Positions 1,398-17,394 of a stretch of 23,904 bases of DNA are shown piece by piece. The stretch lies in IMG/VR virus record IMGVR_UViG_3300031952_000012. One strand, written 5' to 3'. The position numbers and the translations under genes are program-made. The notes under the pieces are model-generated. The model saw nothing but the letters and a program-made list of their open reading frames with translations, was not told the DNA's origin and did not search any database. Within the stretch, counting starts at the first letter, position 1, and the number at the start of each line of letters is the position of its first letter. Source of the DNA: an uncultured virus (IMG/VR IMGVR_UViG_3300031952_000012). Lineage: Duplodnaviria > Heunggongvirae > Uroviricota > Caudoviricetes.

Positions 1398-1807
1398 CAG
1401 CCGTGTCGAACAGGTATGGAGCTAACACCAGAAGTAATAAAACCTCGATAGCGATTTGAGTATGCGTAAATTGGAACGCCTAAAAGATCGGCGAGTCTGA
1501 AACCCCATCGAACATACTCGTGTTCGAGTTGGTCGGGCTCGTTGTCGCGCAAATGCAAATCGGAAAGTTGAATCGCCGCGAGACGATCTTGAGACTCGAT
1601 CAACTTCGTCTCGAGATCGTCCATCACTTTCAAAATGCGTCGTACTCTGTCGACCGCTTCTTCGATGATCAAGTTCATCGCCGACTCAACCAAAAATGCG
1701 GTTTGCATCGGGCGAGGAATGCCGAATTGAATAGACGCCGCCGCCTGAATTTCAGGATAGCCAAGGTGAAAACGACAGCGTTCTTTTTCAGCGGCATCGA
1801 GAGGCAT
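1397..1807 (-). CDS. Putative head-tail adaptor protein
   Basis: 136-aa helical protein starting 'MPLDAAEKERCRFHLGYP'. First of the three neck genes after the capsid region; RBS GAGGA upstream. Confidence 0.55.
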   Translation of the reverse strand: MPLDAAEKERCRFHLGYPEIQAAASIQFGIPRPMQTAFLVESAMNLIIEEAVDRVRRILKVMDDLETKLIESQDRLAAIQLSDLHLRDNEPDQLEHEYVRWGFRLADLLGVPIYAYSNRYRGFITSGVSSIPVRHG

Positions 1808-1821
1808 AGGTCCTCAATTGA

Positions 1822-2145
1822 TCAAGCCTGCTTTTCTAGTTTCACACCTGCGGCAAGAAGTTTTTCGATTGCTCCCGGCCCATAACTCGAATCGTCGACG
1901 AGCGTGTCCTTCGGCAAAAAAGTGATATGGCCGTTGAAGGAAACGATCTTCGCCTCGAGCACCAAATATCTTCCCGTCAATGGGGCGGGCTGCACTAGCG
2001 GTGGCTCGACAGTGGGCTCGACTTTCGGAGGTGAATCCTCTTTGAGCAGTCTGGCAATTTCAGCAGGGCTTTGCGTTTTTACAACGGGAGGCGCATAAAT
2101 TTTATTTTCCACTTTTGTCTCCTCGACCATTCGAACCTTGGCCAT
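1822..2145 (-). CDS. Small virion-associated protein following the capsid gene (Pro-rich linker plus small C-terminal domain)
   Basis: Strong RBS (GGAGG-cacaaa-ATG). 107 aa at the typical post-capsid position. Confidence 0.6.
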   Translation of the reverse strand: MAKVRMVEETKVENKIYAPPVVKTQSPAEIARLLKEDSPPKVEPTVEPPLVQPAPLTGRYLVLEAKIVSFNGHITFLPKDTLVDDSSYGPGAIEKLLAAGVKLEKQA

Positions 2146-2159
2146 TTTGTGCCTCCGTC

Positions 2160-2640
2160 AAGAGTTAAAAAAGATGACAGGAGATACGATTCGCGATTTT
2201 TCATATCCGATCTTTGGTCCCCGATCGTGGGGGAAGAATCTGAAAAACAATCGAATCGTATCCCAGGAATTATGCCGAGAGGAATCACGCTCCGAGGAGT
2301 GAGAATCTTCTATGGCGCCCCATGAGCACTGACGAGGAGTGACCGACTCCGCGTGCAAGTTCATCTGTCGATTGTTGCTCTTGCGGTTCCATGGCACGAA
2401 GCCAGGGTTTGCGAGAGCAACGGATGGGGCACGAAGCCCCGAGTTCTCGATCTTTGCGTGAGCGTCTTGGTAGATGCTCGGATCGAGATAGGCGAACTGG
2501 CTCCTACGCGGGAGCACACAAGGGTCCGAAGACCATCGCCAGGAATGCTCAACACAATGGTTGAGCAAAGGTTTGTCGACCATCAGCATGCGAACTCATT
2601 ATCCGCCCGCGCCGAATCAAACACAAAGTCGGCGCGGGCT
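2160..2640 (-). ncRNA. Candidate large structured non-coding RNA (family not recognised)
   Basis: A 509-nt gap between the capsid stop (2655) and the next ATG (2145) is filled by at least 10 hairpins. Examples: 11-bp perfect stems 2605-2615/2629-2639 and 2183-2193/2252-2262, a GGUC-UUCG-GACC tetraloop hairpin, two GGC-UUCGU-GCC hairpins and a long-range closing helix. A U-tract follows the last hairpin on the minus strand. Confidence 0.6.
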
Positions 2641-2654
2641 TAAAAGAGGGAAAT

Positions 2655-4067
2655 TTATTCGCCGTGCTGAACAACGCAAGCTCGTTTGTAACGAGCATAG
2701 TCGCCGGTGGTGACGTCCGTGCGGACGGGCCAATCGCCGATGAACTTCCAGGCGGTAGAAACCTGATCTTGCAAACGGTTCAGAGGCGCTCTGAGAATCA
2801 TCTGAATCCGCTCTGTGAAGACTTCGATTCCGTTGTTCGTAATTCTTGGCTCTGCGGTTTTGCCCGTGATGCCTGCCTCGGTGATCAGCTCATCGAGGTT
2901 GGTGTAGTACTCACGAAGCATTCCCTGCCCGACAAACAGAGCGCGGTGAACTTTGACACCCGAGGTCGCGCCGGTATTGAAGAGCTCGCCGGCGAAGGCT
3001 TCGTCGGTCGAGTAGGTCGCCGTGAGGCCGCCATCGACGGTTTCAGGAATCGGGTTTTCGGAGTTCTGGAAATACACGGTGCCGAGGAGTTGACCGATTG
3101 TGAAATCCTTATACATGTAGTAATCGGGCAAGGCGGTCAGCAAACGCTGCCATTCTGGATCCGAGAACACTTGGGCTTCAGAGGTCGGGTCGAGGTGGCA
3201 GTGATACTTCCCGTCGGGCATCGGGGGAACGTTGCTGGTTCGGAAACGCGAAATCGCGGCTCGGATATCTGAGAGGCGAAGGAGGTCGGTGCTGCCGACA
3301 TCGTCAATTTTCATGCCGCCGCCGACGCGAACCAAATAGGTTCGATCTTCGGAGACGATATACGCGCGATCGGCAACCGTGACAGCGCCGCCCGCGATTG
3401 TGATCGTGCCAGGACCGACTTCGTCACCAGCCGTAGCGGCGGAGAAGCCGACAACGGTTCGAGAGACTTCAACGCCGGCGCCAGTCGTATCCCAAATCCG
3501 AATCTTCAGCGGATTGTTTGCGCTGACCGCATCGTATCGAACGGGGCTTCCAAGCGCGAGATCGGGCCGACGTGCTTTGGTGAGTCCGTTGAGTCGCTTG
3601 ACAGAGATGGTCGTGACAGCGCCCTGCGGGCCATCGGCAACCGTGTGTCCCGATTCAGCCGCGTTGAAGAGCCGATTCCTCGGGAGGCGGTTGAGTGACT
3701 GACCGGCAGAGAGACCGAGTTGCTGGGCGTTGCGCAAAAACAAATTGGCGATCGCGACCATCGAGGTCGGCATATTCGTATCGATCGCGTCCGCATAGAG
3801 ATTCAGAGTCGAGGACCATTGCTCGCTCGTGAACGTGCTGGGGACGGGGTCGGATCCTGGAACGAGCGGCTTGGTTTTCGGCTTGATGAGCCCTGCGCCC
3901 GTGAACGTCATGCTGTCGCCGACCTGGCCTGCCCACAACTCGGCAGTCGCCTCGCCGCGGAATAACAATCGAGGGAAAAGCGCATCGTGGAAGGCACGCT
4001 CAAGGGTGTTCTCCTGAACGATTGCTCGGATTTCTGGCGATTGAACAATAATTGAAAAATCAGTCAT
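2655..4067 (-). CDS. Major capsid protein (HK97 fold, with an inserted beta-rich domain)
   Basis: 470 aa, directly after the scaffold. Capsid-like segments 'GQVGDSMTFT', 'GKYHCHLDPTSEAQVFSDPEW', 'IGQLLGTVYFQ' and 'PLNRLQDQVSTAWKF'. Confidence 0.85.
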   Translation of the reverse strand: MTDFSIIVQSPEIRAIVQENTLERAFHDALFPRLLFRGEATAELWAGQVGDSMTFTGAGLIKPKTKPLVPGSDPVPSTFTSEQWSSTLNLYADAIDTNMPTSMVAIANLFLRNAQQLGLSAGQSLNRLPRNRLFNAAESGHTVADGPQGAVTTISVKRLNGLTKARRPDLALGSPVRYDAVSANNPLKIRIWDTTGAGVEVSRTVVGFSAATAGDEVGPGTITIAGGAVTVADRAYIVSEDRTYLVRVGGGMKIDDVGSTDLLRLSDIRAAISRFRTSNVPPMPDGKYHCHLDPTSEAQVFSDPEWQRLLTALPDYYMYKDFTIGQLLGTVYFQNSENPIPETVDGGLTATYSTDEAFAGELFNTGATSGVKVHRALFVGQGMLREYYTNLDELITEAGITGKTAEPRITNNGIEVFTERIQMILRAPLNRLQDQVSTAWKFIGDWPVRTDVTTGDYARYKRACVVQHGE

Positions 4068-4071
4068 GACT

Positions 4072-4155
4072 CGTCCTCGTCTTGTGGTTTGTTAGACTTC
4101 CCCGTTTGCCGTCATCGTTCCGGCGAACCCTTGTGTGACCCGCAAGACGAAGACG
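4072..4155 (-). promoter_or_regulatory. Hairpin sequestering the capsid-gene Shine-Dalgarno
   Basis: In the mRNA, CGUCUUCGUCUUGCGG (4155-4140) pairs with CCACAAGACGAGGACG (4087-4072, contains the SD GAGGA): 15 of 16 positions pair, including one G-U. Confidence 0.55.
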
Positions 4156-4160
4156 TGCTC

Positions 4161-5018
4161 TCAAATATTAAGCTTCAATCCCTGAGAAAGAAGATGTTCT
4201 CGATACTCTTGTGGGTTCATTTTTCGAGCATCTTTTTTCCCTAGTACCGCTGCGGTTTGTGTCAGCGTTCCAGGCTTGGGCGCATTGACATTGCTGCTCC
4301 CATTTCCCGTTGTCGCCGGCCGAACCACTTCGCTAAACAAAACTGGGTGTGACTCTCTCAGACTCGAGAAGTATTTCCGTTCATCGAATTTCGCTTGGTC
4401 TTGTTCGCTCAAACTCTCGACGTGTTTGGTCAGCATCCGAATCGCGACTTCGACCGCGACATCGTCTCTGATACCAGCCGTGAACGCCGCCGCCATCAAG
4501 GCCATCTCAGCGTCTTTTGCCTCGAGGCGTTGCTCGAGATCTTTTCGAGCTCGTGACTCTTGGCTCAATCTTTGATTCTGTGACTCATAGGTCTTCTGCC
4601 ACTTGCTGCGCTCTTTGAAGAGTTGACTCGCCTCTTTGTTGCTCTCGGGTTTGCTCTTATCCGAATCCACTTTCTGAACTTCTTGTCGTGGCGGTTGCGC
4701 TTTGACTTTGCCGCTCTTGACGCCTTGAATCAGCCCCTTGAATTCATCGACGCTCGATAAGCCGAGCTCTTTTACAATTGAATCGATTGCCTCTTTGCGG
4801 CCCTTTTCGCGTGCGTCATCTTTTGCTTTTTTGAATGCGTGTTGCGGAACGATAAAATTCTTTCCGTTCCCGGTCGTCGAGAATTCCGACTGTTGCCCGT
4901 TCCCATTTTGCTTTTCCGATTGCTCGGTCGGCATCGGTGGCTGAATAGGATCGATTGATACTGGTGCGCCGAGCGGTGGTGAACCGCTTGTCTGAACCTC
5001 TTGCGTCCCATCTAGCAT
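4161..5018 (-). CDS. Capsid scaffolding protein
   Basis: 285 aa with a disordered N-terminus and a charged coiled-coil middle. Ends '...PATTGNGS...DARKMNPQEYREHL'. Lies immediately upstream of the capsid gene. Confidence 0.8.
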   Translation of the reverse strand: MLDGTQEVQTSGSPPLGAPVSIDPIQPPMPTEQSEKQNGNGQQSEFSTTGNGKNFIVPQHAFKKAKDDAREKGRKEAIDSIVKELGLSSVDEFKGLIQGVKSGKVKAQPPRQEVQKVDSDKSKPESNKEASQLFKERSKWQKTYESQNQRLSQESRARKDLEQRLEAKDAEMALMAAAFTAGIRDDVAVEVAIRMLTKHVESLSEQDQAKFDERKYFSSLRESHPVLFSEVVRPATTGNGSSNVNAPKPGTLTQTAAVLGKKDARKMNPQEYREHLLSQGLKLNI

Positions 5019-6061: not shown

Positions 6062-6259
6062 TCAGCCCGGGCCAATCTTAAAAGGCGAGGGGTCGGGGGC
6101 CTGCGGCAACGAAGCCTGTGGAAGTTTTGATTCGGTGTCTTTGTTGTCGGCAACTTCGTCTTTGTATTTCCCATAGCGCTCATCGAAAAGTTCGGCTGCG
6201 CTTTTCTGAGAGGCGGCACCAGCGTTTGCGAATTCGACCCAGAGGGGTTGGTCAGGCAT
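6062..6259 (-). CDS. Small hypothetical protein (C-terminal PSPF motif), paralogue of 6296..6463
   Basis: RBS AGGAG. 65 aa ending LPQAPDPSPFKIGPG. Confidence 0.65.
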   Translation of the reverse strand: MPDQPLWVEFANAGAASQKSAAELFDERYGKYKDEVADNKDTESKLPQASLPQAPDPSPFKIGPG

Positions 6260-6295
6260 TGGCGTTCTCCTATTGGTGTTTCGTGCGCCCGCTTA

Positions 6296-6463
6296 TTACT
6301 TTGTCGCGCCGAACGGTGAAGGCGGACTCGGCAAGGCTGGCGTTGTGGGGGGTGGTGGAGTTTTTACTTCCGAGTATGATCCCATCGCGGAATCGTAAAC
6401 GTTGACGACTGATTTCTGACTCGACTGCTCGGCCTGTTTTGCAAGCTCAATTGCACAAGGCAT
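6296..6463 (-). CDS. Small hypothetical protein of 55 aa (not in the ORF track)
   Basis: RBS GGGGGAGGGA, then MPCAIELAKQAEQSSQKSVVNVYDSAMGSYSEVKTPPPPTTPALPSPPSPFGATK followed by TAA TAA. Aligns with 6062..6259 (E-hydrophobic-A...SQKS...[YF]D...GxY...LP...PSPF). Confidence 0.7.
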   Translation of the reverse strand: MPCAIELAKQAEQSSQKSVVNVYDSAMGSYSEVKTPPPPTTPALPSPPSPFGATK

Positions 6464-6491
6464 GCGTTCCCTCCCCCGCTCAAATCAAAAA

Positions 6492-6710
6492 CTAAAAAGG
6501 CTTCTTCTGAAAACTGTTTTGCTTGTCGACCATCGGCGGAATGTTTTCGGCATAGTGACCGTGCGGCGCTTGCGCCATTCCCGTCGTCAGCATCTCGCCG
6601 CATTGCGAACAAATGGGCGCGTCCTGACCGAAGCCTTCTTTGGCCGTTCCGAGTTCGAGTGCTCGTGTTCGCGGTGTCCTAATCGTTTTCACGCCGGGAT
6701 GAATCGCCAT
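6492..6710 (-). CDS. Small hypothetical protein (CxxC, ends KKPF)
   Basis: RBS GAGGGG. 72 aa containing 'CSQC' and 'HGH'. Confidence 0.6.
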   Translation of the reverse strand: MAIHPGVKTIRTPRTRALELGTAKEGFGQDAPICSQCGEMLTTGMAQAPHGHYAENIPPMVDKQNSFQKKPF

Positions 6711-6719
6711 TGCGCCCCT

Positions 6720-6932
6720 CTATTTCTTGATCTCAAACGGCAGGTTACTGTGTGTCAGCGGTCGAGATTCAAAATCTTTCCATACGATCATTCCAGGTTC
6801 ACCGGGGGCGAGTTCTTTCGATGGTTGCGATACGGGGTCTTTTAACGCCGGTCGCATTTGCGCATCAAAAGGAGATTCGACAGAAACTTTTTTTGAATCT
6901 CCCGCCCCTTTGAAATTGAATTCAATTCCCAT
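6720..6932 (-). CDS. Small hypothetical protein (ends LPFEIKK)
   Basis: ATG at 6932 gives 70 aa. An alternative GTG at 6980 overlaps the upstream stop, so the start is uncertain. Confidence 0.55.
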   Translation of the reverse strand: MGIEFNFKGAGDSKKVSVESPFDAQMRPALKDPVSQPSKELAPGEPGMIVWKDFESRPLTHSNLPFEIKK

Positions 6933-7475: not shown

Positions 7476-7817
7476 TCATACGGCGATCTTCTTTTTGAAT
7501 CTGCCGAGCACATCGATTTGTCGCTCTCGATAGTGCTCTTTCAAATGTTGCGAGTGAGTCGTGACAATCAAATTCTCGAGACGGTTATCCCAACACCTGC
7601 CATTCTTATGATGCACGTCTTCTTCGGTTTTCAATTTGCGTCCGAGATGACACTCCATCATGAAGCGATGCTCTAAAATATATCCGCGCCGGCCAACCAA
7701 AACCTCGACGTACCCATCGTCCCGAATTTTGTATTTCCGTTTCGGGTGCCGTTGTCGAATTGCGTGCCGCAAAACTTTTAGAAATGACGGCCCCAATTTC
7801 GCCGGGCGTTTTCTCAT
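7476..7817 (-). CDS. Free-standing HNH (HNH_3-type) homing endonuclease
   Basis: Motif YILEHRFMME.HLGRKL...DVHHKNG...DNRLENL...HSQH. The likely start is ATG 7817 (ATGA overlap), giving 113 aa. Confidence 0.85.
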   Translation of the reverse strand: MRKRPAKLGPSFLKVLRHAIRQRHPKRKYKIRDDGYVEVLVGRRGYILEHRFMMECHLGRKLKTEEDVHHKNGRCWDNRLENLIVTTHSQHLKEHYRERQIDVLGRFKKKIAV

Positions 7818-8752
7818 AGCGCGGTTGCACGCTTTCCGTTTCGCCAAACCCAACCAGGAATTCCCCAGTCTCGTTTCCATGGCGACACAACCGCGCGGTC
7901 GTTCGGTCGATTGGGCGGGAATGCCCACTCTTGACCTTGCAATGATTCGGGTATCGCTTCGCCTTTCGGTGTCGCGGGCGGCATGAAAAACATTTCTCCG
8001 ACGCCCGCGACCTGCCCGTGCATTGCGAGTGAATCGATTGCCACTCTATCGTCATACGGGTTCCCGTCCTCGTCGACCATTTCCTCCCACTGCATTTTCA
8101 TTCCGGGAACTTCACGCGCTGTGTCTTCAATAGCGTCTCGGTGCGAAGCATTGTATGCCCACGCTGTTTCTGTACGGACTATTCTTTCAGCCTGCCACCA
8201 CTCGCCCTCGATGGCGGGGAGCACACGCCCGATTGCTTGGTCTTGATTCTCTCCCGTGAGCAGTGACATGGCGAGCTCTCGCTCAACCGCCTTCACGGTC
8301 TGTGCGCCATGTTTTGCCATGCTGCTCTCGTGCATGCGAAGCAAAGAGGTCTTTCTTTTGTCGATGATTCCGTAGAACCTCGACGCTTCCTCGAGGGGCA
8401 ATTCAATCGTGGCGCCCGTGAACTTCTTCTCGAGTCGCCCGACGTCCTTCAAGAGCCCGCTCACCGCTTCCTTCTGCGCCTCTCGCGTGACCGACCCGAG
8501 CTCGGCCGCCATCTTCGCCGATAGCGTTGCCTGCCCGTCTTTGATTTGAGCGAGTGCGAACCGCATTTGATGCGTGGTGAAAGTGTCCGCGCCGCGACCT
8601 AGTTGAGCTCTGAGCTTCGCCTCTTGCTCTATCGCGGCCTCGTGATACATGCGGCTGAGAGGGAATACGCCTCGGCGCATAGAGAGACGGAGGAGTCGTT
8701 GCCGATGCTCCTCCATCACTTGCTGATAGTACTTTTTTTTCGCCGATGCCAC
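7814..8752 (-). CDS. Minor head / head morphogenesis protein (Mu gpF / SPP1 gp7-like)
   Basis: Motifs 'AERIVRTETAWAYN', 'DDRV..DSLAMHGQV' and 'PPNRPNDR'. The last aligns with the family PPxHPxCRC motif but lacks the Cys/His residues. Confidence 0.8.
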   Translation of the reverse strand: MASAKKKYYQQVMEEHRQRLLRLSMRRGVFPLSRMYHEAAIEQEAKLRAQLGRGADTFTTHQMRFALAQIKDGQATLSAKMAAELGSVTREAQKEAVSGLLKDVGRLEKKFTGATIELPLEEASRFYGIIDKRKTSLLRMHESSMAKHGAQTVKAVERELAMSLLTGENQDQAIGRVLPAIEGEWWQAERIVRTETAWAYNASHRDAIEDTAREVPGMKMQWEEMVDEDGNPYDDRVAIDSLAMHGQVAGVGEMFFMPPATPKGEAIPESLQGQEWAFPPNRPNDRAVVSPWKRDWGIPGWVWRNGKRATAL

Positions 8753-8761
8753 GTGCCCCTC

Positions 8762-10552
8762 TTACTCCGAAAAAATTCGATTGAAGAAGTTTGCGTCGGT
8801 CGCAACCTTGCCGGGCAATGCTCGCAATGCGGCGAGCGATAATGCGGTTGTTCCGTCGATAGAAAAATCGCCGAGAGCGTTACCGCTCATTATGGTATTG
8901 GCTGCCACACCAACATTGTTAAAAGCGCCACCCATTGCATTTCCCGGAAGTGGATATGCGAGATTGACACCCCAACCAGCGTTATTGCTAATGTCGACAT
9001 TTGCACCGATTGCAATGTTGTTATAGGGGCACGTGATACGAATTGCATCGGAGAGTCCGTCAATAATTTTAGTGCTTGCCGCAAGCACTAACGAATTGAA
9101 GCCACGACTGCCCGATTGAATTGAACCCCATGTCGAGAGATCAAATGCAACAGACTTGCATCCCGAGATTGTTGTGACCGAGAATGCCAAACCATATCCA
9201 TGATTGCCTATGCGAAAAATCGTGCTGTTATTCCGCAGCACCACGTCATTAAAATTCAAAAAGGCATTTCCGCCATAAGCTATATCGAAAACCGGAAAAT
9301 TCAGCGTATCAAAATCCTGTATTACTGTGCCGTTTGAAAAGAACACATATGAACCTTCGTTCTTTATGGCCAAAGATCTCTGACCCAGCCCTGGTTGAAT
9401 AAAACTCGCCGATACATCGGCGATAATGCCAGCGCCGAAATTCATACCGGAATTGGCATTCACTGCGCTATCATGAACATTATACTGAAAGGTTGCTGTC
9501 GAGCCTTTCATTAAATAGCATTCAATTGTTTTTGTACCTGAAGATCTCGATTGCAAATAACAACTAGTTACATATATTTTAGCCATCCCATAAGCTGTAA
9601 TGACGCCCGTACAACCAGTCTGCACAGTGTGCCCGATTAACTGCAAAGCGCTGATTTCAATTCCGCGAATGCTGGAGAGCCTTACTCTATGATCTGAAAT
9701 TTTTAATCTGATCGGGTCTCCGTTGGGTGTTCCACTTGGCTGAACAATTGCTGCGGGCATAACTAACTCGAACGTGCACCCGTTACATGCCGCTATAAAA
9801 GAGTTGGTCGCGCAGACTTCGAGAGTGTCAATTGTATTTGATGCAATCGGAAAATATTTTCCGATCTGTGTACCGCTAGTCAATTTCACAAACTTCTTTT
9901 GGAGATCATTGACCGCCCAACCTGCGCCCGCGCTCGTTACGAATTTTCCGCTGACGCTTGTAAACGTTCCCGTCTGAATTCCTGTCGCTGGCGTGATCGC
10001 GGCCCAATCTTGACCGGCGATTTTCAATGTGACATTCGAGCTCTGAATATGCGTTGTGATCTCGATTGACTCAACGTAGGTTCCCGCTTTGATGTTGATT
10101 GTGAAATTGTGACTGAGCACGTGCGGGATGAGCGCGGTCGCGGCACCAATAGTTTTGAATGGCGCAAGAGCCGTTCCCGCGTTCGCATCGTTTCCAAGAA
10201 CCGCATCGACCCAGTATGTTGCGTCTGCCTGTGACACTATCTGTGAAGCGACGAGAATCCCAGAGAGCCGTGTCGTCGGCAATGTCCCCGACGTTTGCGT
10301 CAATGGAAGATTGCCCGATATCTGCGAGACGTTCACGGGTGGATTCTGTTGCGTCGAGATCGGATTGATTCCAACACCGGGAACGGCAGTGATTTTCAAA
10401 ATGCTATCGACGACCTGCGCGCCGCCGAGATTGGCAACGATATTTGCTTCGGTATCCTCGAATACAATTCCTTGTCCCGGGCGTAAAATTCCATAGTAGG
10501 GGTACGGAAGCGATATCGCAGCGCCGGAAATGTTCGTGATCATCATTGCCAT
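8762..10552 (-). CDS. Fibre/spike-like protein with a DUF1565-like cap and right-handed beta-helix (pectin-lyase-like fold)
   Basis: 'YWVDAVLGNDANAGTALAPFKTIGAA...TINIKAGTYVESI' cap motif and Asn/Gly/Ile-rich repeats ('ISNNAGWGV'). RBS AGGAG. Confidence 0.7.
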   Translation of the reverse strand: MAMMITNISGAAISLPYPYYGILRPGQGIVFEDTEANIVANLGGAQVVDSILKITAVPGVGINPISTQQNPPVNVSQISGNLPLTQTSGTLPTTRLSGILVASQIVSQADATYWVDAVLGNDANAGTALAPFKTIGAATALIPHVLSHNFTINIKAGTYVESIEITTHIQSSNVTLKIAGQDWAAITPATGIQTGTFTSVSGKFVTSAGAGWAVNDLQKKFVKLTSGTQIGKYFPIASNTIDTLEVCATNSFIAACNGCTFELVMPAAIVQPSGTPNGDPIRLKISDHRVRLSSIRGIEISALQLIGHTVQTGCTGVITAYGMAKIYVTSCYLQSRSSGTKTIECYLMKGSTATFQYNVHDSAVNANSGMNFGAGIIADVSASFIQPGLGQRSLAIKNEGSYVFFSNGTVIQDFDTLNFPVFDIAYGGNAFLNFNDVVLRNNSTIFRIGNHGYGLAFSVTTISGCKSVAFDLSTWGSIQSGSRGFNSLVLAASTKIIDGLSDAIRITCPYNNIAIGANVDISNNAGWGVNLAYPLPGNAMGGAFNNVGVAANTIMSGNALGDFSIDGTTALSLAALRALPGKVATDANFFNRIFSE

Positions 10553-11861: not shown

Positions 11862-12217
11862 CACATCTCCTGAGGAACGCACGCGTGAACGACCGCGATG
11901 AATAGCGCATCTTTTCTCCGGTCGTTCTCAGTCAACATCGAGTACGGGAGAATCGACGGATGCTCTTTCTTTGCGGCGTTGCTGACGATGCCGTATTTCC
12001 AACCGTCCTTTTCTTTTCGATGCAGCCAATTCTCATGCGCGCGCTCGGCAAGGGAAACACCGGGATTCTCGAGCAGGAAGATGACGCCTTCGATTGTCGC
12101 TTGTCTCATCCAATCGGGCGCGTCCTCCCATCTCGGCGACGTTGTCTCGCCGATCACCTCTCGATAGGCGCGGTTCGTCTCATGACAGATCTTTGCGATA
12201 TGCTCGACGTTCATCAT
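11861..12217 (-). CDS. RyR-domain protein
   Basis: AHENWLHRKEKDGWKYG....AKKEHPSILPYSMLTENDRRKD matches the RyR repeat signature. Confidence 0.85.
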   Translation of the reverse strand: MMNVEHIAKICHETNRAYREVIGETTSPRWEDAPDWMRQATIEGVIFLLENPGVSLAERAHENWLHRKEKDGWKYGIVSNAAKKEHPSILPYSMLTENDRRKDALFIAVVHACVPQEM

Positions 12218-14157
12218 GACATGTCTCCCGGCGGCGGCTCTTGTAGCTCTGAAGGTCGAATATCAATCGCGTTAATGATCTCACTGGCGGTGCTTTCTGA
12301 GAACGACATTGGAAACGCCCCGGTAATAACGGAGACAGCGGCTTCTCTCGAGAGCAGACCTGATTGAACGGACATGAGGATCTGCAAGAGACTGGCGATC
12401 TGCGCGCCGTTGAGAGCGGTCGATTGAATGTCCTTCTCGATCTCCGCTTCGTGCGTCTCTGGTTTTTGCGTTGACAATTCCTGGTTTCTAATGCTAGGCA
12501 TTCTGCCTAGCATCATGTTCTCGAGTTCGGCGTCTTTCTCGAACCGCTCCGACTTCAACTTCTTCAACATTCCCTGCGCATCTTCGATATGGAAATACTC
12601 GGCGACGAATTTCGTCGCGTGCTCATCGTCGATAAGCCCACTCATTTTTGCATTGCCCGCTGCGCTCGTCGCCGCTGTGACGTCTGTGAGAGTCGGGTCG
12701 AAGTACTGTGGCCATTGCAATTTGAGAGAGTAATTCGGACCGGCACCGAGCACGCGCGGCTTCTGAATCGAGACACCGTTCTCGTTTTTCGTGACGCTTG
12801 GCGGGAGATTGATGGTCTGTTTTAGGACCGACCCGTCCTCTTGCACGCTCCCCGCGCCGAGTTTCTGAATCGCCTTAATCATGTCGAGGATGAGAGGCTT
12901 CACGCCACGTTCTCCGTACTGCTCACGCATGACGTCGGCCTTGGCGAGCATGCTCGAGAACGCTCTCTCGATCTCTGTCGCCGTACGCTGTGACTGCTCG
13001 GGGTGCTCTAGCACGCACTGTGCGACCTCGAGAGCGTGCTTGCGAAGCATTTCGATCTTGCTCATTGCGATCTCGATGCCCTGCCCTGTGATCTCGAGGT
13101 ACTTCGCATCGCCGTTCGGAATGTGAAGCGCGTTATCGCTTCCCTTGATGATCTCGTCCATGCGAGCGACCGAGGTAATCACGAGGGTAGGATCGCAATT
13201 CGCCTGCGTGCCTTTTAATCCGCTCGACATGAGCGCATCGATTGCCTCGATGAGCGGATAGATGCCCTGACAATCGGGGTCGCCATCGATATCGTCTTGC
13301 ACCGGGAGGTTTTGCACCCATCGCACCGGGCAGAAACCGAAACCGTGAACGACTTCCTTTCGCGCGAGGTTCTCCCAATCGGGCTCTTCGCCATCGTCGA
13401 CGGGAACAGGATCCCAGAGCACGTCCGATGTTTTCGTGATGACGCGCCGATACCAGAAATCAATTGGCTGCCTGATTCCCGTTCTCGGGTCGAGAATCTC
13501 TTTCGTGAACATGTGTCGCTTCTCGATCGATTTGAGCACGAGCTCGAGCTCGTCTTCAAAGTCCGGGATCATCCAACGCGGGTCGTGAATCTCGATTCGA
13601 GGAAGCCCATCGATAAATTGAAACCCGATGACGACCGTCCCCATCGCGCCCCCGTACTCGCGGGCGAGCATCATGAGCGGCCAAAGGCGCGCCTCTTCGA
13701 CCAATGCGCCGACGAAATCTTCGGTGAGCGGATCGCCCTCGATACGAATTTGAGGGTGATGACGCTCTGAGAAAAGCAATCCCGAGAATCTATCGACGAT
13801 GACTTTTGGGAGAGCATAGGGCGCGGTTGGCTTTCTGAACTTGTTCGGCATCGCGCTTGTCAACATCGATTGAAAGCCGGGCGGGAGAAATCCTTTTGTC
13901 GCTATCGCCTCGATCTCGATCGGGTCGATGACCTCGTTGCCGTTCCAGTCGCATTTCCTCGTATCGTAATGCTGGCATCGATACCAGGCCCACAACCAAT
14001 TCAATTCTTGCTGACGCGGCGTCAGACCGAGTCTTGCGATGCGTTGATTGGTGACTGCCTGCGCGGCGCGATCGCCGAGTCGCCCGCCGAGTTTTTGCGC
14101 GATCGCTCCCACTAGTCTGCTCACTCGGCCCATATCGACGCGGGTTGCGCTGCTCAT
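12214..14157 (-). CDS. Portal protein (probably SPP1 gp6-like) with C-terminal extension
   Basis: 647 aa after the terminase. Segments 'LPKVIVDRFSGLLF', 'VVHGFGFCPVRWVQN' and 'LKLQWPQYFDPT'. Confidence 0.85.
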   Translation of the reverse strand: MSSATRVDMGRVSRLVGAIAQKLGGRLGDRAAQAVTNQRIARLGLTPRQQELNWLWAWYRCQHYDTRKCDWNGNEVIDPIEIEAIATKGFLPPGFQSMLTSAMPNKFRKPTAPYALPKVIVDRFSGLLFSERHHPQIRIEGDPLTEDFVGALVEEARLWPLMMLAREYGGAMGTVVIGFQFIDGLPRIEIHDPRWMIPDFEDELELVLKSIEKRHMFTKEILDPRTGIRQPIDFWYRRVITKTSDVLWDPVPVDDGEEPDWENLARKEVVHGFGFCPVRWVQNLPVQDDIDGDPDCQGIYPLIEAIDALMSSGLKGTQANCDPTLVITSVARMDEIIKGSDNALHIPNGDAKYLEITGQGIEIAMSKIEMLRKHALEVAQCVLEHPEQSQRTATEIERAFSSMLAKADVMREQYGERGVKPLILDMIKAIQKLGAGSVQEDGSVLKQTINLPPSVTKNENGVSIQKPRVLGAGPNYSLKLQWPQYFDPTLTDVTAATSAAGNAKMSGLIDDEHATKFVAEYFHIEDAQGMLKKLKSERFEKDAELENMMLGRMPSIRNQELSTQKPETHEAEIEKDIQSTALNGAQIASLLQILMSVQSGLLSREAAVSVITGAFPMSFSESTASEIINAIDIRPSELQEPPPGDMS

Positions 14158-15167: not shown

Positions 15168-16664
15168 TCATCGCGACATCAAATCGATATAGCCTGATTT
15201 TACCTTCACGTCACCAATGCGAACGCCCTCGCGTGCGAACCACATCGCCATCAGACAATCGCCAGTATGAGCGTTCACGTCGTAATTGCATATTTCGTTT
15301 ACAAGCGGTTCGAGCGAGGCGTGCACTCGGCCGTTGCTACTGGGTATCGACCACTTGCCCATTGCCATTTCGGTCGAGAGAGACTCGACACCAAAATCGG
15401 GATGAACTTTATTGTTACCCGTGGTGAAAGGGATGATTGGAATAACTCCCAATTGAGCCTGACCGAATTGTCCCATCTCGTGGGCGAATTGCACAATGTA
15501 ATCTTGCGCCGCGTTGTTCTCGACGACACAGATTGATTGATAGCGCCGCTGAATGTCGAACAAGCGTTTGAGAATATCAATGCCCTTCCACTTCCCTCTC
15601 TCGACGTTGATGATTTCCCGGCACCCGTTTTGATAAACGAGAATCGTCACCATCGCGGTGAAGTCGTTCGCATCGCCTCTCTTGACGGCGAGGTCGACGC
15701 CCGTATAGACGCGGCATCCGTACGGGATGATGTCGAGCTGGAACGTGAGCGCTCTGCCCTCGCCATTCTTGAGCGCGATATCGAGCCACTCCTTTTTGAA
15801 CCTCGCCTCGGAATCGTCGCGCGCTATGCAGTCGAGTTTTCGCGGCGCTTGAATCGGGCCGAGCTCTTGACGCTTGAGTGCGATGCGCTCCTCGGACCAT
15901 TGGTCGGGCCACCGAGGTTTCCCATTCTCGTCTGTGATTGGATATCGAAATGCTTTCCATGCCGGCGTCTTTGCCAGGCGGTGCATGAAATCATCGGGAT
16001 GCCAGGCGGTGCCGACACAAATCACTCGCGCATTTTCTGTGAGGCGGTCGACGAGCGTTGACTCGTACCAATCCCAAAGGTCATCGCGCGCGCGTTTCGT
16101 TCTCGTGTTCTCGAAGTCGAGTAGGTCGTCGAGAATGAGGAGATCGATTCTCGCGCCCGTGATGTTTCCGTGAATGCCGCACGCGAAGACCGTCGGATCC
16201 TTTGAAAATACTTTGCGCTTCACCTGCATTTCAGTGTTGTTCCACGGCTCGTCGGGCAAGAGATCGGGAAAGATCTCGTGAAGCGTTTCCGATTTCTCGA
16301 TGTACTGCTGGATCGCATAACCGATTTTCACTGCCTGCGCCGAGGTGTTGCTAACGATTGCTACTCGCAACGCGGGATCGCTACCGATGGCAAAGAGAGT
16401 TCGCCCTATCGAGAGTTGGTTTGTCTTGCCGCTCTCGACGTGACTCCAGATAAGCAATCGATTGTGGCGATTGGCGAGCGAGTGCCAATGATTCTGCGGG
16501 ATGCTCTGTTGGATACGCTGACCCGTGCGCTCGTTGCGCAACACGGCCTGATTGAAGACGGCCGGAACCGTTCGGGCGAGCTCTAACTCTACTTGTCTTG
16601 CCGCCCGCGTCGCTCCCTTGAATAGGTCCGACCGCGAGTTAGTGAACTGGGTTGCCGGCGCCAT
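15168..16664 (-). CDS. terL: Terminase large subunit
   Basis: Walker A SHVESGKT, Walker B LLILDD, coupling motif VGTAWH, and RNase-H-like nuclease residues TGVDLA, NDFTA, VENN and GDCLMA. The likely start is ATG 16664; the ORF track uses GTG 16715. Confidence 0.92.
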   Translation of the reverse strand: MAPATQFTNSRSDLFKGATRAARQVELELARTVPAVFNQAVLRNERTGQRIQQSIPQNHWHSLANRHNRLLIWSHVESGKTNQLSIGRTLFAIGSDPALRVAIVSNTSAQAVKIGYAIQQYIEKSETLHEIFPDLLPDEPWNNTEMQVKRKVFSKDPTVFACGIHGNITGARIDLLILDDLLDFENTRTKRARDDLWDWYESTLVDRLTENARVICVGTAWHPDDFMHRLAKTPAWKAFRYPITDENGKPRWPDQWSEERIALKRQELGPIQAPRKLDCIARDDSEARFKKEWLDIALKNGEGRALTFQLDIIPYGCRVYTGVDLAVKRGDANDFTAMVTILVYQNGCREIINVERGKWKGIDILKRLFDIQRRYQSICVVENNAAQDYIVQFAHEMGQFGQAQLGVIPIIPFTTGNNKVHPDFGVESLSTEMAMGKWSIPSSNGRVHASLEPLVNEICNYDVNAHTGDCLMAMWFAREGVRIGDVKVKSGYIDLMSR

Positions 16665-17394
16665 TGCGGCCCCCCGTTGATTCGATGATGACCGCGTCCG
16701 CACTTGATTCGGCATTCACCTCTGAACTTGACTCGGTGAGCGCGGGATTCCAAACGGCGTCGGCGCCCATGCTTTTCGCCATCTCGATCGTGGCGAGCGC
16801 GCGTCGACATTCTGACTCTGCTTCCTCGACGGTGATATTCGTCAGCCCAATGATCTCGGTCGGCGCTCCGACGAGTAGGCGCTCTAACACGAGCGAGAGT
16901 TTGGCGCTCTCGTTGCCGTCCTTGATGAGCTTGCCGATTGTCGCAACGACTGCGAGGCCATCCTTAACGCCTAGCTGCTCTGTCTTGAGTTGCTCGCCGA
17001 GCTTCGCCGCGAGTTGAAAGGCGCCGCCTAGAAGCTTTTGAGAGCAGGCCATGAGCGCGATGCAATTCTCTCTCGCTCCTCGGACCATCTTCGTCTCGTG
17101 GGTGCGGATCTCTATCGCGTCTTGTCGAACGACCTCTGATTTGATGCTCACTGTCTCGAGGTTGCGCTTTGCCTTCTCTGACGCCACTCTTGATCTCGCC
17201 TCGAGTTGCTCTTGCTCGACGACATCTTTCGCGGGATCGAAGTACTTTGATTCCCAGCCGACCTTCCAGCATTTTGTGGCGGTTCGATACTCAACATTGC
17301 ATTTTTGCGCCACGTAACTAATATTGCCGGGCTCTTCTCGAAACGCCTCTAGCATCTGCTCGTAGAGTTCACGACTGATTGCTTTTCTGCTCAC
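16639..17394 (-). CDS. terS: Terminase small subunit (putative)
   Basis: N-terminal HTH-like segment (NISYVAQKCNVEYRTATKCW) and a helical middle. Overlaps the terL start; RBS GGGGGA. Confidence 0.7.
   Translation of the reverse strand: MSRKAISRELYEQMLEAFREEPGNISYVAQKCNVEYRTATKCWKVGWESKYFDPAKDVVEQEQLEARSRVASEKAKRNLETVSIKSEVVRQDAIEIRTHETKMVRGARENCIALMACSQKLLGGAFQLAAKLGEQLKTEQLGVKDGLAVVATIGKLIKDGNESAKLSLVLERLLVGAPTEIIGLTNITVEEAESECRRALATIEMAKSMGADAVWNPALTESSSEVNAESSADAVIIESTGGRNGAGNPVH

Follow-up and report, generated by a model that had tools for sequence, protein, structure and literature searches.

Why would a phage head module whose neighbouring genes mostly abut leave half a kilobase free directly behind the major capsid gene? 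The question is raised by a DNA of 23,904 nucleotides (nt) from an uncultured member of the Caudoviricetes (IMG/VR record IMGVR_UViG_3300031952_000012), which was analyzed over its whole length and is referred to here as the window. On its minus strand, to which all features described below belong unless stated otherwise, the map of open reading frames (ORFs) places the end of the capsid gene at position 2655 and the start of the next gene at 2145, and the 509-nt gap between capsid stop and next start (2146..2654) is the exception to the otherwise tight gene arrangement. A prediction made from the sequence alone had pointed to this non-coding gap and proposed that about 480 nt of it (2160..2640) form a new large, densely folded phage RNA. 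The gap is present as described, and the element that fills it is a member of an RNA family without a match in Rfam 15 that occurs in many uncultured phages, dozens of them, at a fixed place and in a fixed orientation. As far as comparison between relatives can tell, two parts of this RNA, termed modules A and B, are conserved and covary strongly.

Module A (2372..2423, core 2383-2412) is a hairpin with a near-invariant internal loop of four by four nucleotides that was delineated by covariation and is captured by model R1, with which the copy in the window scores 60.3 bits (E 1e-13). Across 40 distinct sequences it is composed of a variable outer helix, two fixed closing pairs (G-C and C-G), the internal loop with AAAC opposite AACC, a 4-bp inner helix with a bulged pyrimidine (CC-UG/CA-Y-GG) and, at the top, variable pairs and a free loop. 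Standard base pairs are found in 80.2% of cells, compared to 61.6% in shuffled controls and 33-38% when the pairing partners are slid against each other. The covariation score of 0.452 contrasts with 0.128 after shuffling, a value of this height is reached by none of 500 shuffles, and all four Watson-Crick types occur at single pairs. Comparison of the window with its 95%-identical relative L004 adds three adjacent module A pairs that are altered on both sides. Module A therefore stands, on comparative grounds, as a conserved structured RNA with compensatory changes above all controls. One more specific idea of the original prediction did not survive this comparison. The UUCGU loops had been regarded as repeated binding or kissing sites, but in the conserved hairpin neither the sequence nor the length of the loop is kept among the relatives, and the idea fails for this reason.

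The 40 module A sequences had been gathered through their conserved letters, and a set of 80 loci selected by the capsid protein alone hence served as an unbiased check. Five of the 80 end too early to be judged. Model R1 matches 38 of them, all on the gene strand and between 106 and 839 nt past the capsid stop; a 39th match, located inside a capsid gene (E 0.31), was taken as false. The weaker matches of this capsid-anchored set are informative, as they swap core pairs on both sides that appeared invariant in the first collection, namely U-A to C-G or A-U, G-C to A-U and C-G to U-A. Such two-sided swaps fix the register of the helix and confine the true conservation of unpaired positions to the loop nucleotides and the bulge. 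The carriers' capsid proteins are 43-100% identical to that of the window, the most distant carrier being L017 (43%).

The second conserved part lies at the tip of a long rod of about 84 nt (2181..2264; arms 2183-2193/2252-2262 in the minimum-free-energy (MFE) fold) near the 3' end of the element. Module B (2207..2233) is a predicted H-type pseudoknot, which in the window reads as a C-run, an A, CGAUC, a G-run, a loop, GAUCG and a final G. Family-wide, the order is a C-run, (U)UA, a strand of 5-6 nt that starts with CG, a G-run, UA or a short loop, the complementary strand and then a G. A motif-specific scan with this pattern matched 26 of 40 downstream regions, as against 97 of 1000 shuffles, 8 of 40 upstream regions and 2 of 40 reverse complements, and the matches share additional letters that the scan does not demand. 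In a model-fitted alignment, stem 2 is 97% paired with a covariation of 0.725 versus 0.149, a value not attained in any of 500 shuffles. Stem 1 is mostly CCC/GGG and has no column-wise count because its linker varies in length; variants read by eye are CGCG/CGCG (L031), CCGC/GCGG (L046), CGAG/CUCG (L188, L039), CCCA/UGGG (L025), CCG/CGG (L253) and GGGG/CCUC (L182 group). Model R2, which represents module B, was built from four seeds and is narrow enough to miss the module B of the window itself. Two other routes to this module were abandoned: a generic pseudoknot scanner proved too permissive (167 of 200 shuffles matched), and MAFFT alignments were structurally inconsistent.

Folds computed from module A to the next start codon in about 35 lineages recur in their plan. 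A short linker is followed by a closing helix of 5-7 bp, zero to three small hairpins, a rod of 80-110 nt, the second strand of the closing helix, often ACC plus a U-run, and then the ribosome-binding site. The conserved core thus comprises the 3' 200-250 nt with module A, the closing helix and the rod bearing module B. In the MFE fold of the window, the closing helix is formed by GACAG (2365..2369) and CUGUC (2176..2180), small hairpins occupy 2270..2360 and include GGAGU/ACUCC at 2336-2350, and a run of six U residues (2167..2172) is located 3 nt past the closing helix and 10 nt ahead of the ribosome-binding site. The boxes of the closing helix vary in step between lineages, for example GGCAGC/GCUGCC, GGCGGC/GCCGCC, GGUGGC/GCCACC, GAUGGC/GCCAUC and GGAGGU/ACCUCC. 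This helix rests on MFE folds and on changes read by eye; a comparison of cognate with non-cognate pairing at 6 bp or more (31/31 versus 855/930) does not discriminate.

A long-range helix (2576-2596 with 2358-2371) that the original prediction had drawn around most of the element would use, for its 3' strand, nucleotides that also belong to the 5' strand of the closing helix. All helices and repeats listed there were located in the sequence as stated. The long-range helix is missing from the MFE fold, loses its pair at the sole variable position in the 95%-identical relative, and competes with the closing helix (2365-2369 with 2176-2180), which recurs in other lineages. The stretch immediately behind module A has two possible partners in the window, one upstream (the long-range helix) and one downstream (the closing helix). 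These mutually exclusive pairings are a possible switch, the upstream one being unsupported by the only informative substitution. The notion of a single folded unit of 480 nt is accordingly upheld in part: the region is structured and non-coding, but only its 3' 200-250 nt share an architecture across lineages.

The remaining 170-410 nt at the 5' side have no common sequence or layout between lineages, apart from the first hairpin. In the window, this hairpin 1 (2605..2639) is a perfect 11-bp, GC-rich stem 15 nt after the capsid stop without a U-run behind it; a strong first hairpin after the capsid stop is seen in other lineages too, and in L005 and L039 it is followed by a U-run. It precedes an array of about five lineage-specific hairpins (2425..2597), several with UUCG-type loops, which the MFE fold places at 2546-2567, 2523-2534, 2500-2515, 2445-2488 and 2426-2440. 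Within the clade of the window (95-99% identical), seven base pairs have changed on both sides: one in the 5' array (U-A to C-G at 2532/2525), the three in module A, two in the small 3' hairpins (2349/2337 and 2315/2275) and one in the rod (U-A to A-U at 2255/2190). Five more substitutions hit only one side of an MFE pair: one leaves a wobble (C-G to U-G), and the other four abolish pairing, several of them at helix ends or in long-range pairs that are themselves dubious. The 5' half is still under structural selection despite being lineage-specific. Two exact direct repeats, each in two copies, are confined to the clade of the window and lacking in other lineages: an 11-nt repeat, GGCUUCGUGCC, forming hairpin tops at 2393-2403 and 2428-2438, and a 10-nt repeat, UCACUCCUCG, at 2293-2302 and 2333-2342. 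They suggest local hairpin duplication as a way in which the variable parts grow. In the MFE fold, CCCUCU right after the capsid stop (2645-2650) pairs with GGAGG (2152-2156) and encloses the element, a modelled pairing that could couple translation over 500 nt. An anti-Shine-Dalgarno pairing of this kind was dropped as a family feature as it is found in about three lineages only (the window clade and the L027 type).

The folding energy of the whole element fits with this picture. The minus-strand RNA reaches an MFE of -193.2 kcal/mol, compared to -159.5 +/- 5.4 kcal/mol for 100 dinucleotide shuffles, none of which equals it; the resulting z-score of -6.23 bears out the expected excess of structure over shuffled controls. 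The plus strand folds with a z-score of -6.92. In ten other lineages, with 15 shuffles each, the whole gap gave z-scores from -2.5 to -11.1, whereas an equally long adjacent stretch of the capsid coding region gave -0.2 to -4.1. In L016 and L038, the last 425-509 nt of the capsid gene also beat their shuffles (z about -4), and RNA structure may reach into the capsid gene in some lineages.

None of this structure corresponds to a catalogued RNA. Rfam 15, whose scope includes Mu-gpT-DE (RF03012), GOLLD, ROOL, HEARO, 6S RNA, pRNA, RNase P, tmRNA, group I and II introns and the known ribozymes and riboswitches, yielded no match at gathering scores in the whole window. At E<=10, positions 2000-2800 produced merely two snoRNA-type chance matches on the opposite strand, and three weak, unrelated matches at scattered places were obtained in 20 other lineages. 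ARAGORN reported no tRNA or tmRNA gene in the window. The initial impression that signatures of tmRNA, RNase P or introns are missing was therefore correct, and the proposed Rfam search leaves an element that matches no family and is conserved in its relatives on the gene strand.

An ORF of 143 codons (2158..2589) overlies the gap, and ORFs of 137-157 amino acids do so in many lineages, so that the hairpins might be incidental to a true small structural gene. Several observations speak against this reading. The codon positions that differ between the window and L004 (given as first/second/third) show a strong third-position bias in four neighbouring genes, with 21/7/106 in the capsid gene and 4/3/19, 13/7/44 and 3/2/37 in the genes for proteins of 107, 136 and 180 amino acids (p107, p136 and p180), whereas the frame of 143 codons gives 4/9/6 without a third-position excess. 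Over this frame, 19 of 432 nt differ (4.4%), and the flanking genes are more diverged (7.7-15.6%). The open frame over the conserved module A block is not the same among 21 lineages, two of which lack any frame longer than 60 amino acids, and the length of the block itself shifts by single bases from 26 to 29 nt. Pfam and PHROG searches with the 143-residue product returned no match, and tblastn found relatives only among the near-identical (95%-identical) copies. Codon pattern, differing frames and single-base length changes show that the ORF is not a gene, and together with the missing homologues they reduce the probability of a protein-coding origin to practically nil. The original prediction had set codon-pattern conservation against compensatory changes as the outcomes speaking for protein or RNA; the relatives display compensatory changes and no codon pattern, which favours the RNA.

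The strand of the functional molecule can be read from its loops. The elements of 35 lineages (17 kb) contain 76 copies of CUUCGG and 6 of CCGAAG, compared to 22 and 23 copies in 54 kb of flanking coding DNA. Given this asymmetry of C(UUCG)G loops, which are extra-stable, the functional molecule is the gene-strand (sense) RNA. The UUCG loops thus support the preference for the minus strand that had been assumed at the outset; the G-U pairs that had been invoked alongside them are uninformative, since the module A helices contain 17 G-U versus 15 A-C combinations. The element is also represented in an RNA library, a sediment metatranscriptome (X1, share 0.06) in which seven contigs of an L004-like relative were found. 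One of them, 336 nt long, falls entirely within the element (2276-2608), and its depth is comparable to that of the pieces from the capsid gene. These contigs document presence only, as they reveal neither ends, strand nor true level and DNA may contaminate RNA libraries. Taken together, the element is non-coding and is made within or right after the capsid message.

The family was traced outward from the window in several steps. A search with the capsid protein retrieved 14 viral contigs. In four of them (L001-L004), the gap is 95-99% identical to that of the window, six others, whose capsids are 60-64% identical, share just a block of about 30 nt with up to 100% identity, L005 (67%) carries a variant of this block, and L006 and L007 (69%) have hardly any gap after the capsid gene. 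A pattern built on the conserved block led to 35 viral loci, and a tighter, extended version to 54 metagenome loci, of which 39 score 46.9-64.7 bits with model R1 and 15 score 35.1 bits or less. A looser sequence pattern applied to bacterial and archaeal genomes as a control gave at least 121 matches. Both flanking helices were present in none of the 121 genomic matches listed, and the best R1 score among 100 of the at least 121 was 31.4 bits. The two best of these 100 (L088, L135) have no phage context and no homologue of any window protein; such homologues are also lacking at three intermediate-scoring metagenome matches (L207, L181, L186), and no prophage host was encountered among the genomic matches listed. 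The conserved letters alone, in other words, do not bring the structure with them by chance.

Carriers and non-carriers can be closely related: among capsids 69-70% identical to that of the window, some are followed by the element and some are not. A neighbour-joining distance tree of the capsid proteins (Biopython; 60 of the 80 loci after removal of truncated and near-duplicate entries, without support values) shows the carriers widely spread and the non-carriers, which are short-gap phages, in two or three clades. This distribution suggests an old, inherited element that probably underwent few losses or replacements. Cultured carriers were not found in a DNA search of the phages of the collection. 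The closest cultured capsid relatives, 29-32% identical, are Streptomyces phage Kromp, Ralstonia phage Raharianne and Komagataeibacter phage phiKX1, which have 0-59 nt after the capsid gene and no element. At the other end, four loci with long gaps (L229, L252, L253, L262) contain a module B detected by model R2 and no module A detected by model R1, and L262 and L279 have a divergent module A with an altered inner helix or a long insertion. Such loci indicate that the family is broader than the models capture. At L021, an HNH endonuclease gene (741-1451; phrog_3106, E 9e-30) lies in the stretch that separates the capsid gene from module A, 49 nt ahead of the motif, and the same gene is present at the identical loci L022, L034, L045, L172, L190 and L199. 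It looks like a free-standing homing endonuclease that was put into the variable 5' part of the element.

The genomic setting is that of a phage head module. Every long ORF of the window is on the minus strand, including the genes for the large terminase (15168-16715), the portal protein (12214-14157), a MuF-like protein (7814-8752) and the major capsid protein (2655-4067; phrog_1357, E 2e-10), which is the upstream neighbour of the element and the anchor of the family. Past the gap follow the small genes of 107, 136 and 180 amino acids, the first being p107 (1822-2145) with its ribosome-binding site GGAGG at 2152..2156, and a gene for an HK97 gp10-like tail-completion protein. Two peculiarities of the module may be mentioned. 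A 596-aa ORF (8762-10552) with a weak pectinesterase-like or tail-protein match (Pfam PF01095, E 1e-5; phrog_4577) sits between the MuF-like head gene and the portal region, an odd spot for a tail-fibre-like protein, and between 6031 and 6977 the sizeable ORFs (6118-6405 and 6462-6845) are found only on the plus strand, breaking the minus-strand head module.

A clue to the function of the element comes from the relatives that lack it. In approximately 10 of 14 short-gap relatives, reading of the sequence reveals a GC-rich hairpin, a U-run and then the ribosome-binding site, in other words a plain terminator in the same slot, which points to a role in cis, one that the original prediction had not taken into account. 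The element likewise ends at the ribosome-binding site of the next gene, and its slot and orientation are constant. Its minimal members, L192 and L019, are reduced to module A and a single rod bearing module B, behind which come a U-run and the ribosome-binding site, and they look like true terminators. A U-run after the domain is found in 15 of 30 lineages; elsewhere in the elements, U-runs are present in roughly 0-0.4 of 40-nt windows per lineage, for which a mean is not defined. The shared slot, the terminators in relatives, the minimal members and the logic known from T7 favour a termination domain acting in cis. At a probability slightly below even, the element serves termination or 3'-end formation in an elaborated form and thereby sets the expression of the capsid against that of the downstream genes. 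It would be an elaborate version of the relatives' plain terminator, would allow much stronger expression of the capsid than of the head-completion and tail genes that follow, and would leave the capsid message with a heavily folded, nuclease-resistant 3' end. Modules A and B might then serve as the core around which the domain folds, or as the place where a factor of host or phage (a Nus-type factor, for example, or RNA polymerase, a nuclease or a phage protein) docks and sets how often transcription stops or reads through.

Several facts weigh against this cis-acting termination domain. A U-run is missing from the scanned stretch in half of the lineages (15 of 30), which rules out simple intrinsic termination as a function common to all of them. 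The U-run of the window lies 3 nt behind the 5-bp closing helix of a branched domain instead of behind a plain hairpin, and a simple terminator scan of the minus strand reports none here. A near-invariant internal loop and a conserved pseudoknot are more than a plain terminator requires, and conservation of this kind is more typical of aptamers, ribozymes and protein-binding RNAs. The contigs of the sole RNA library show neither transcript ends nor strand, and the count of 17 G-U versus 15 A-C does not by itself reveal the strand. Owing to these weaknesses, a trans-acting RNA, a riboswitch-like sensor and a processing ribozyme stay live. Some weight, well short of even, is due to a stable trans-acting RNA that is cut from the late transcript, becomes abundant by riding on the capsid message and might, for instance, take part in head assembly, form multimeric RNA particles or decoy a host protein or a defence system. 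Its size and ornateness, with two invariant modules, a pseudoknot and many UUCG-capped hairpins, exceed the needs of a terminator, structural selection extends over all 509 nt including the 5' hairpins, the strong 5' hairpin and the closed 3' domain would shield a processed RNA, and the 336-nt contig from the RNA library falls entirely within it; moreover, GOLLD and ROOL are described as forming RNA-only complexes (10.1101/2024.12.08.627333). Less easily reconciled with a trans-acting RNA are the 5' half, conserved between lineages in neither sequence nor layout, the constant junction with the next ribosome-binding site and the replacement by a plain terminator in relatives, both of which fit a function in cis, and the failure to find a promoter-like site within 1500-4500. 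The contig, too, says nothing about ends or abundance, and may stem from contaminating DNA.

There is a real chance, though one well below even, that module A docked on the pseudoknotted rod is a new functional RNA fold, either a signal sensor or a self-processing late RNA. If it were a sensor, a phage or host signal such as free capsid protein, a small molecule or the polymerase would be tied to read-through into the head-completion and tail genes; if it processed itself, it would release large amounts of a nuclease-resistant late RNA that has its own function in assembly or counter-defence. A riboswitch in the strict sense, in which modules A and B form a pocket for a small molecule or ion and toggle the closing helix before the U-run, is unlikely. 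The parts of the element follow one another as in a transcriptional riboswitch (structured core, helix plus U-run, ribosome-binding site), the internal loop is almost invariant in its unpaired nucleotides and accompanied by a conserved pseudoknot, and alternative pairings exist after module A in the window. The single informative substitution, however, fails to back the upstream pairing, which was not shown in other lineages; half of the lineages have no U-run, riboswitch families in Rfam match neither the window nor the 20 other lineages, and a metabolite logic for head-completion genes is not obvious. Quite unlikely is a self-cleaving ribozyme or a dedicated site for RNase III, E or P at which the polycistronic late message would be severed behind the capsid gene, making the stability of the capsid part independent of that of the following gene. 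Features such as a pseudoknot and an invariant internal loop are common in small ribozymes, but ribozyme families in Rfam remain unmatched even at E<=5-10, ARAGORN detects no tRNA-like signal, and RNase III sites do not normally require some 20 invariant nucleotides. A processing site would suit the position between a very highly expressed gene and low-copy genes, and late T7 messages are processed at RNase sites, as outlined in PMC6938266. Very improbable, finally, is a selfish or mobile insertion, intron-like or miniature, that came to rest after the capsid gene by chance. It would account for the patchy occurrence in close relatives (capsids 69-70% identical) and for the HNH gene in one lineage, but copy number (one module A in the window), site and orientation are single throughout, flanking repeats are absent, nearly all lineages lack an associated enzyme, group I and II introns yield no Rfam match, and the capsid tree suggests inheritance with few losses. 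The elaborated termination element remains the favoured reading.

The significance of such an element lies in a quantitative problem of head assembly. Phages need hundreds of capsid subunits per copy of the neighbouring head-completion and tail proteins, and how they secure this excess in operons without separate promoters is mostly known from a few model phages. The element would be a widespread, strongly conserved RNA solution to this problem, or possibly more. Its two near-invariant modules invite direct testing by mutation, termination assays and structure probing, and the defined consensus can be used to find a cultivable carrier. In any case, the few large structured RNAs known from phages gain a well-supported new family.

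No description of such an element was found in the literature, which is not proof of absence, and several known systems resemble it in part. T7 has a single terminator (T-phi) immediately after capsid gene 10 and late messages that are cut at RNase sites, according to the outline in PMC6938266. The element-less relatives of the window have such a post-capsid terminator, whereas T-phi, one simple hairpin acting on T7 RNA polymerase, differs from the multi-hairpin domain of 420-680 nt with a pseudoknot described here, half of whose lineages have no U-run. Transcriptional riboswitches and protein-dependent attenuators share the succession of conserved core, helix with U-run and ribosome-binding site; unlike them, the element matches no known aptamer class, a conserved terminator/antiterminator alternative was not traced across lineages, and it is located between two genes of one late operon and not behind a promoter. 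The put RNA of HK022 and the nut sites of lambda are short conserved hairpins with critical unpaired nucleotides that act in cis on the polymerase. Compared by description only, they resemble the element as conserved phage RNAs with key unpaired nucleotides, are not known to share sequence with it, and differ in their location just behind early promoters instead of after the capsid gene. The pRNA of phi29 is a phage-encoded structured RNA tied to head morphogenesis, from which the element is set apart by the missing Rfam match, another genomic place and the lack of evidence for a link to the packaging motor.

Among the large ornate RNAs, GOLLD and ROOL are linked to phages or mobile elements, and HEARO likewise belongs to this group. 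Like GOLLD and ROOL, the element spans hundreds of nucleotides with many helices and an unsettled function (10.1101/2024.12.08.627333). Unlike GOLLD, ROOL and HEARO, it has no Rfam match, is conserved in layout over about half of its length and occupies a fixed place in cis beside a ribosome-binding site. Closest in position is the Mu-gpT-DE motif, a conserved structured RNA of unknown function downstream of a phage major head gene. Going by this description, both are structured RNAs behind the major head gene. The motif (Rfam RF03012; PMC7657543) has no match in the window or in 20 other lineages, the capsid protein preceding the present element belongs to phrog_1357 and not to Mu gpT, and the element is far larger and has two invariant modules. 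It is placed as a new RNA family among the RNA elements that phages carry downstream of their capsid genes or in the terminator region.

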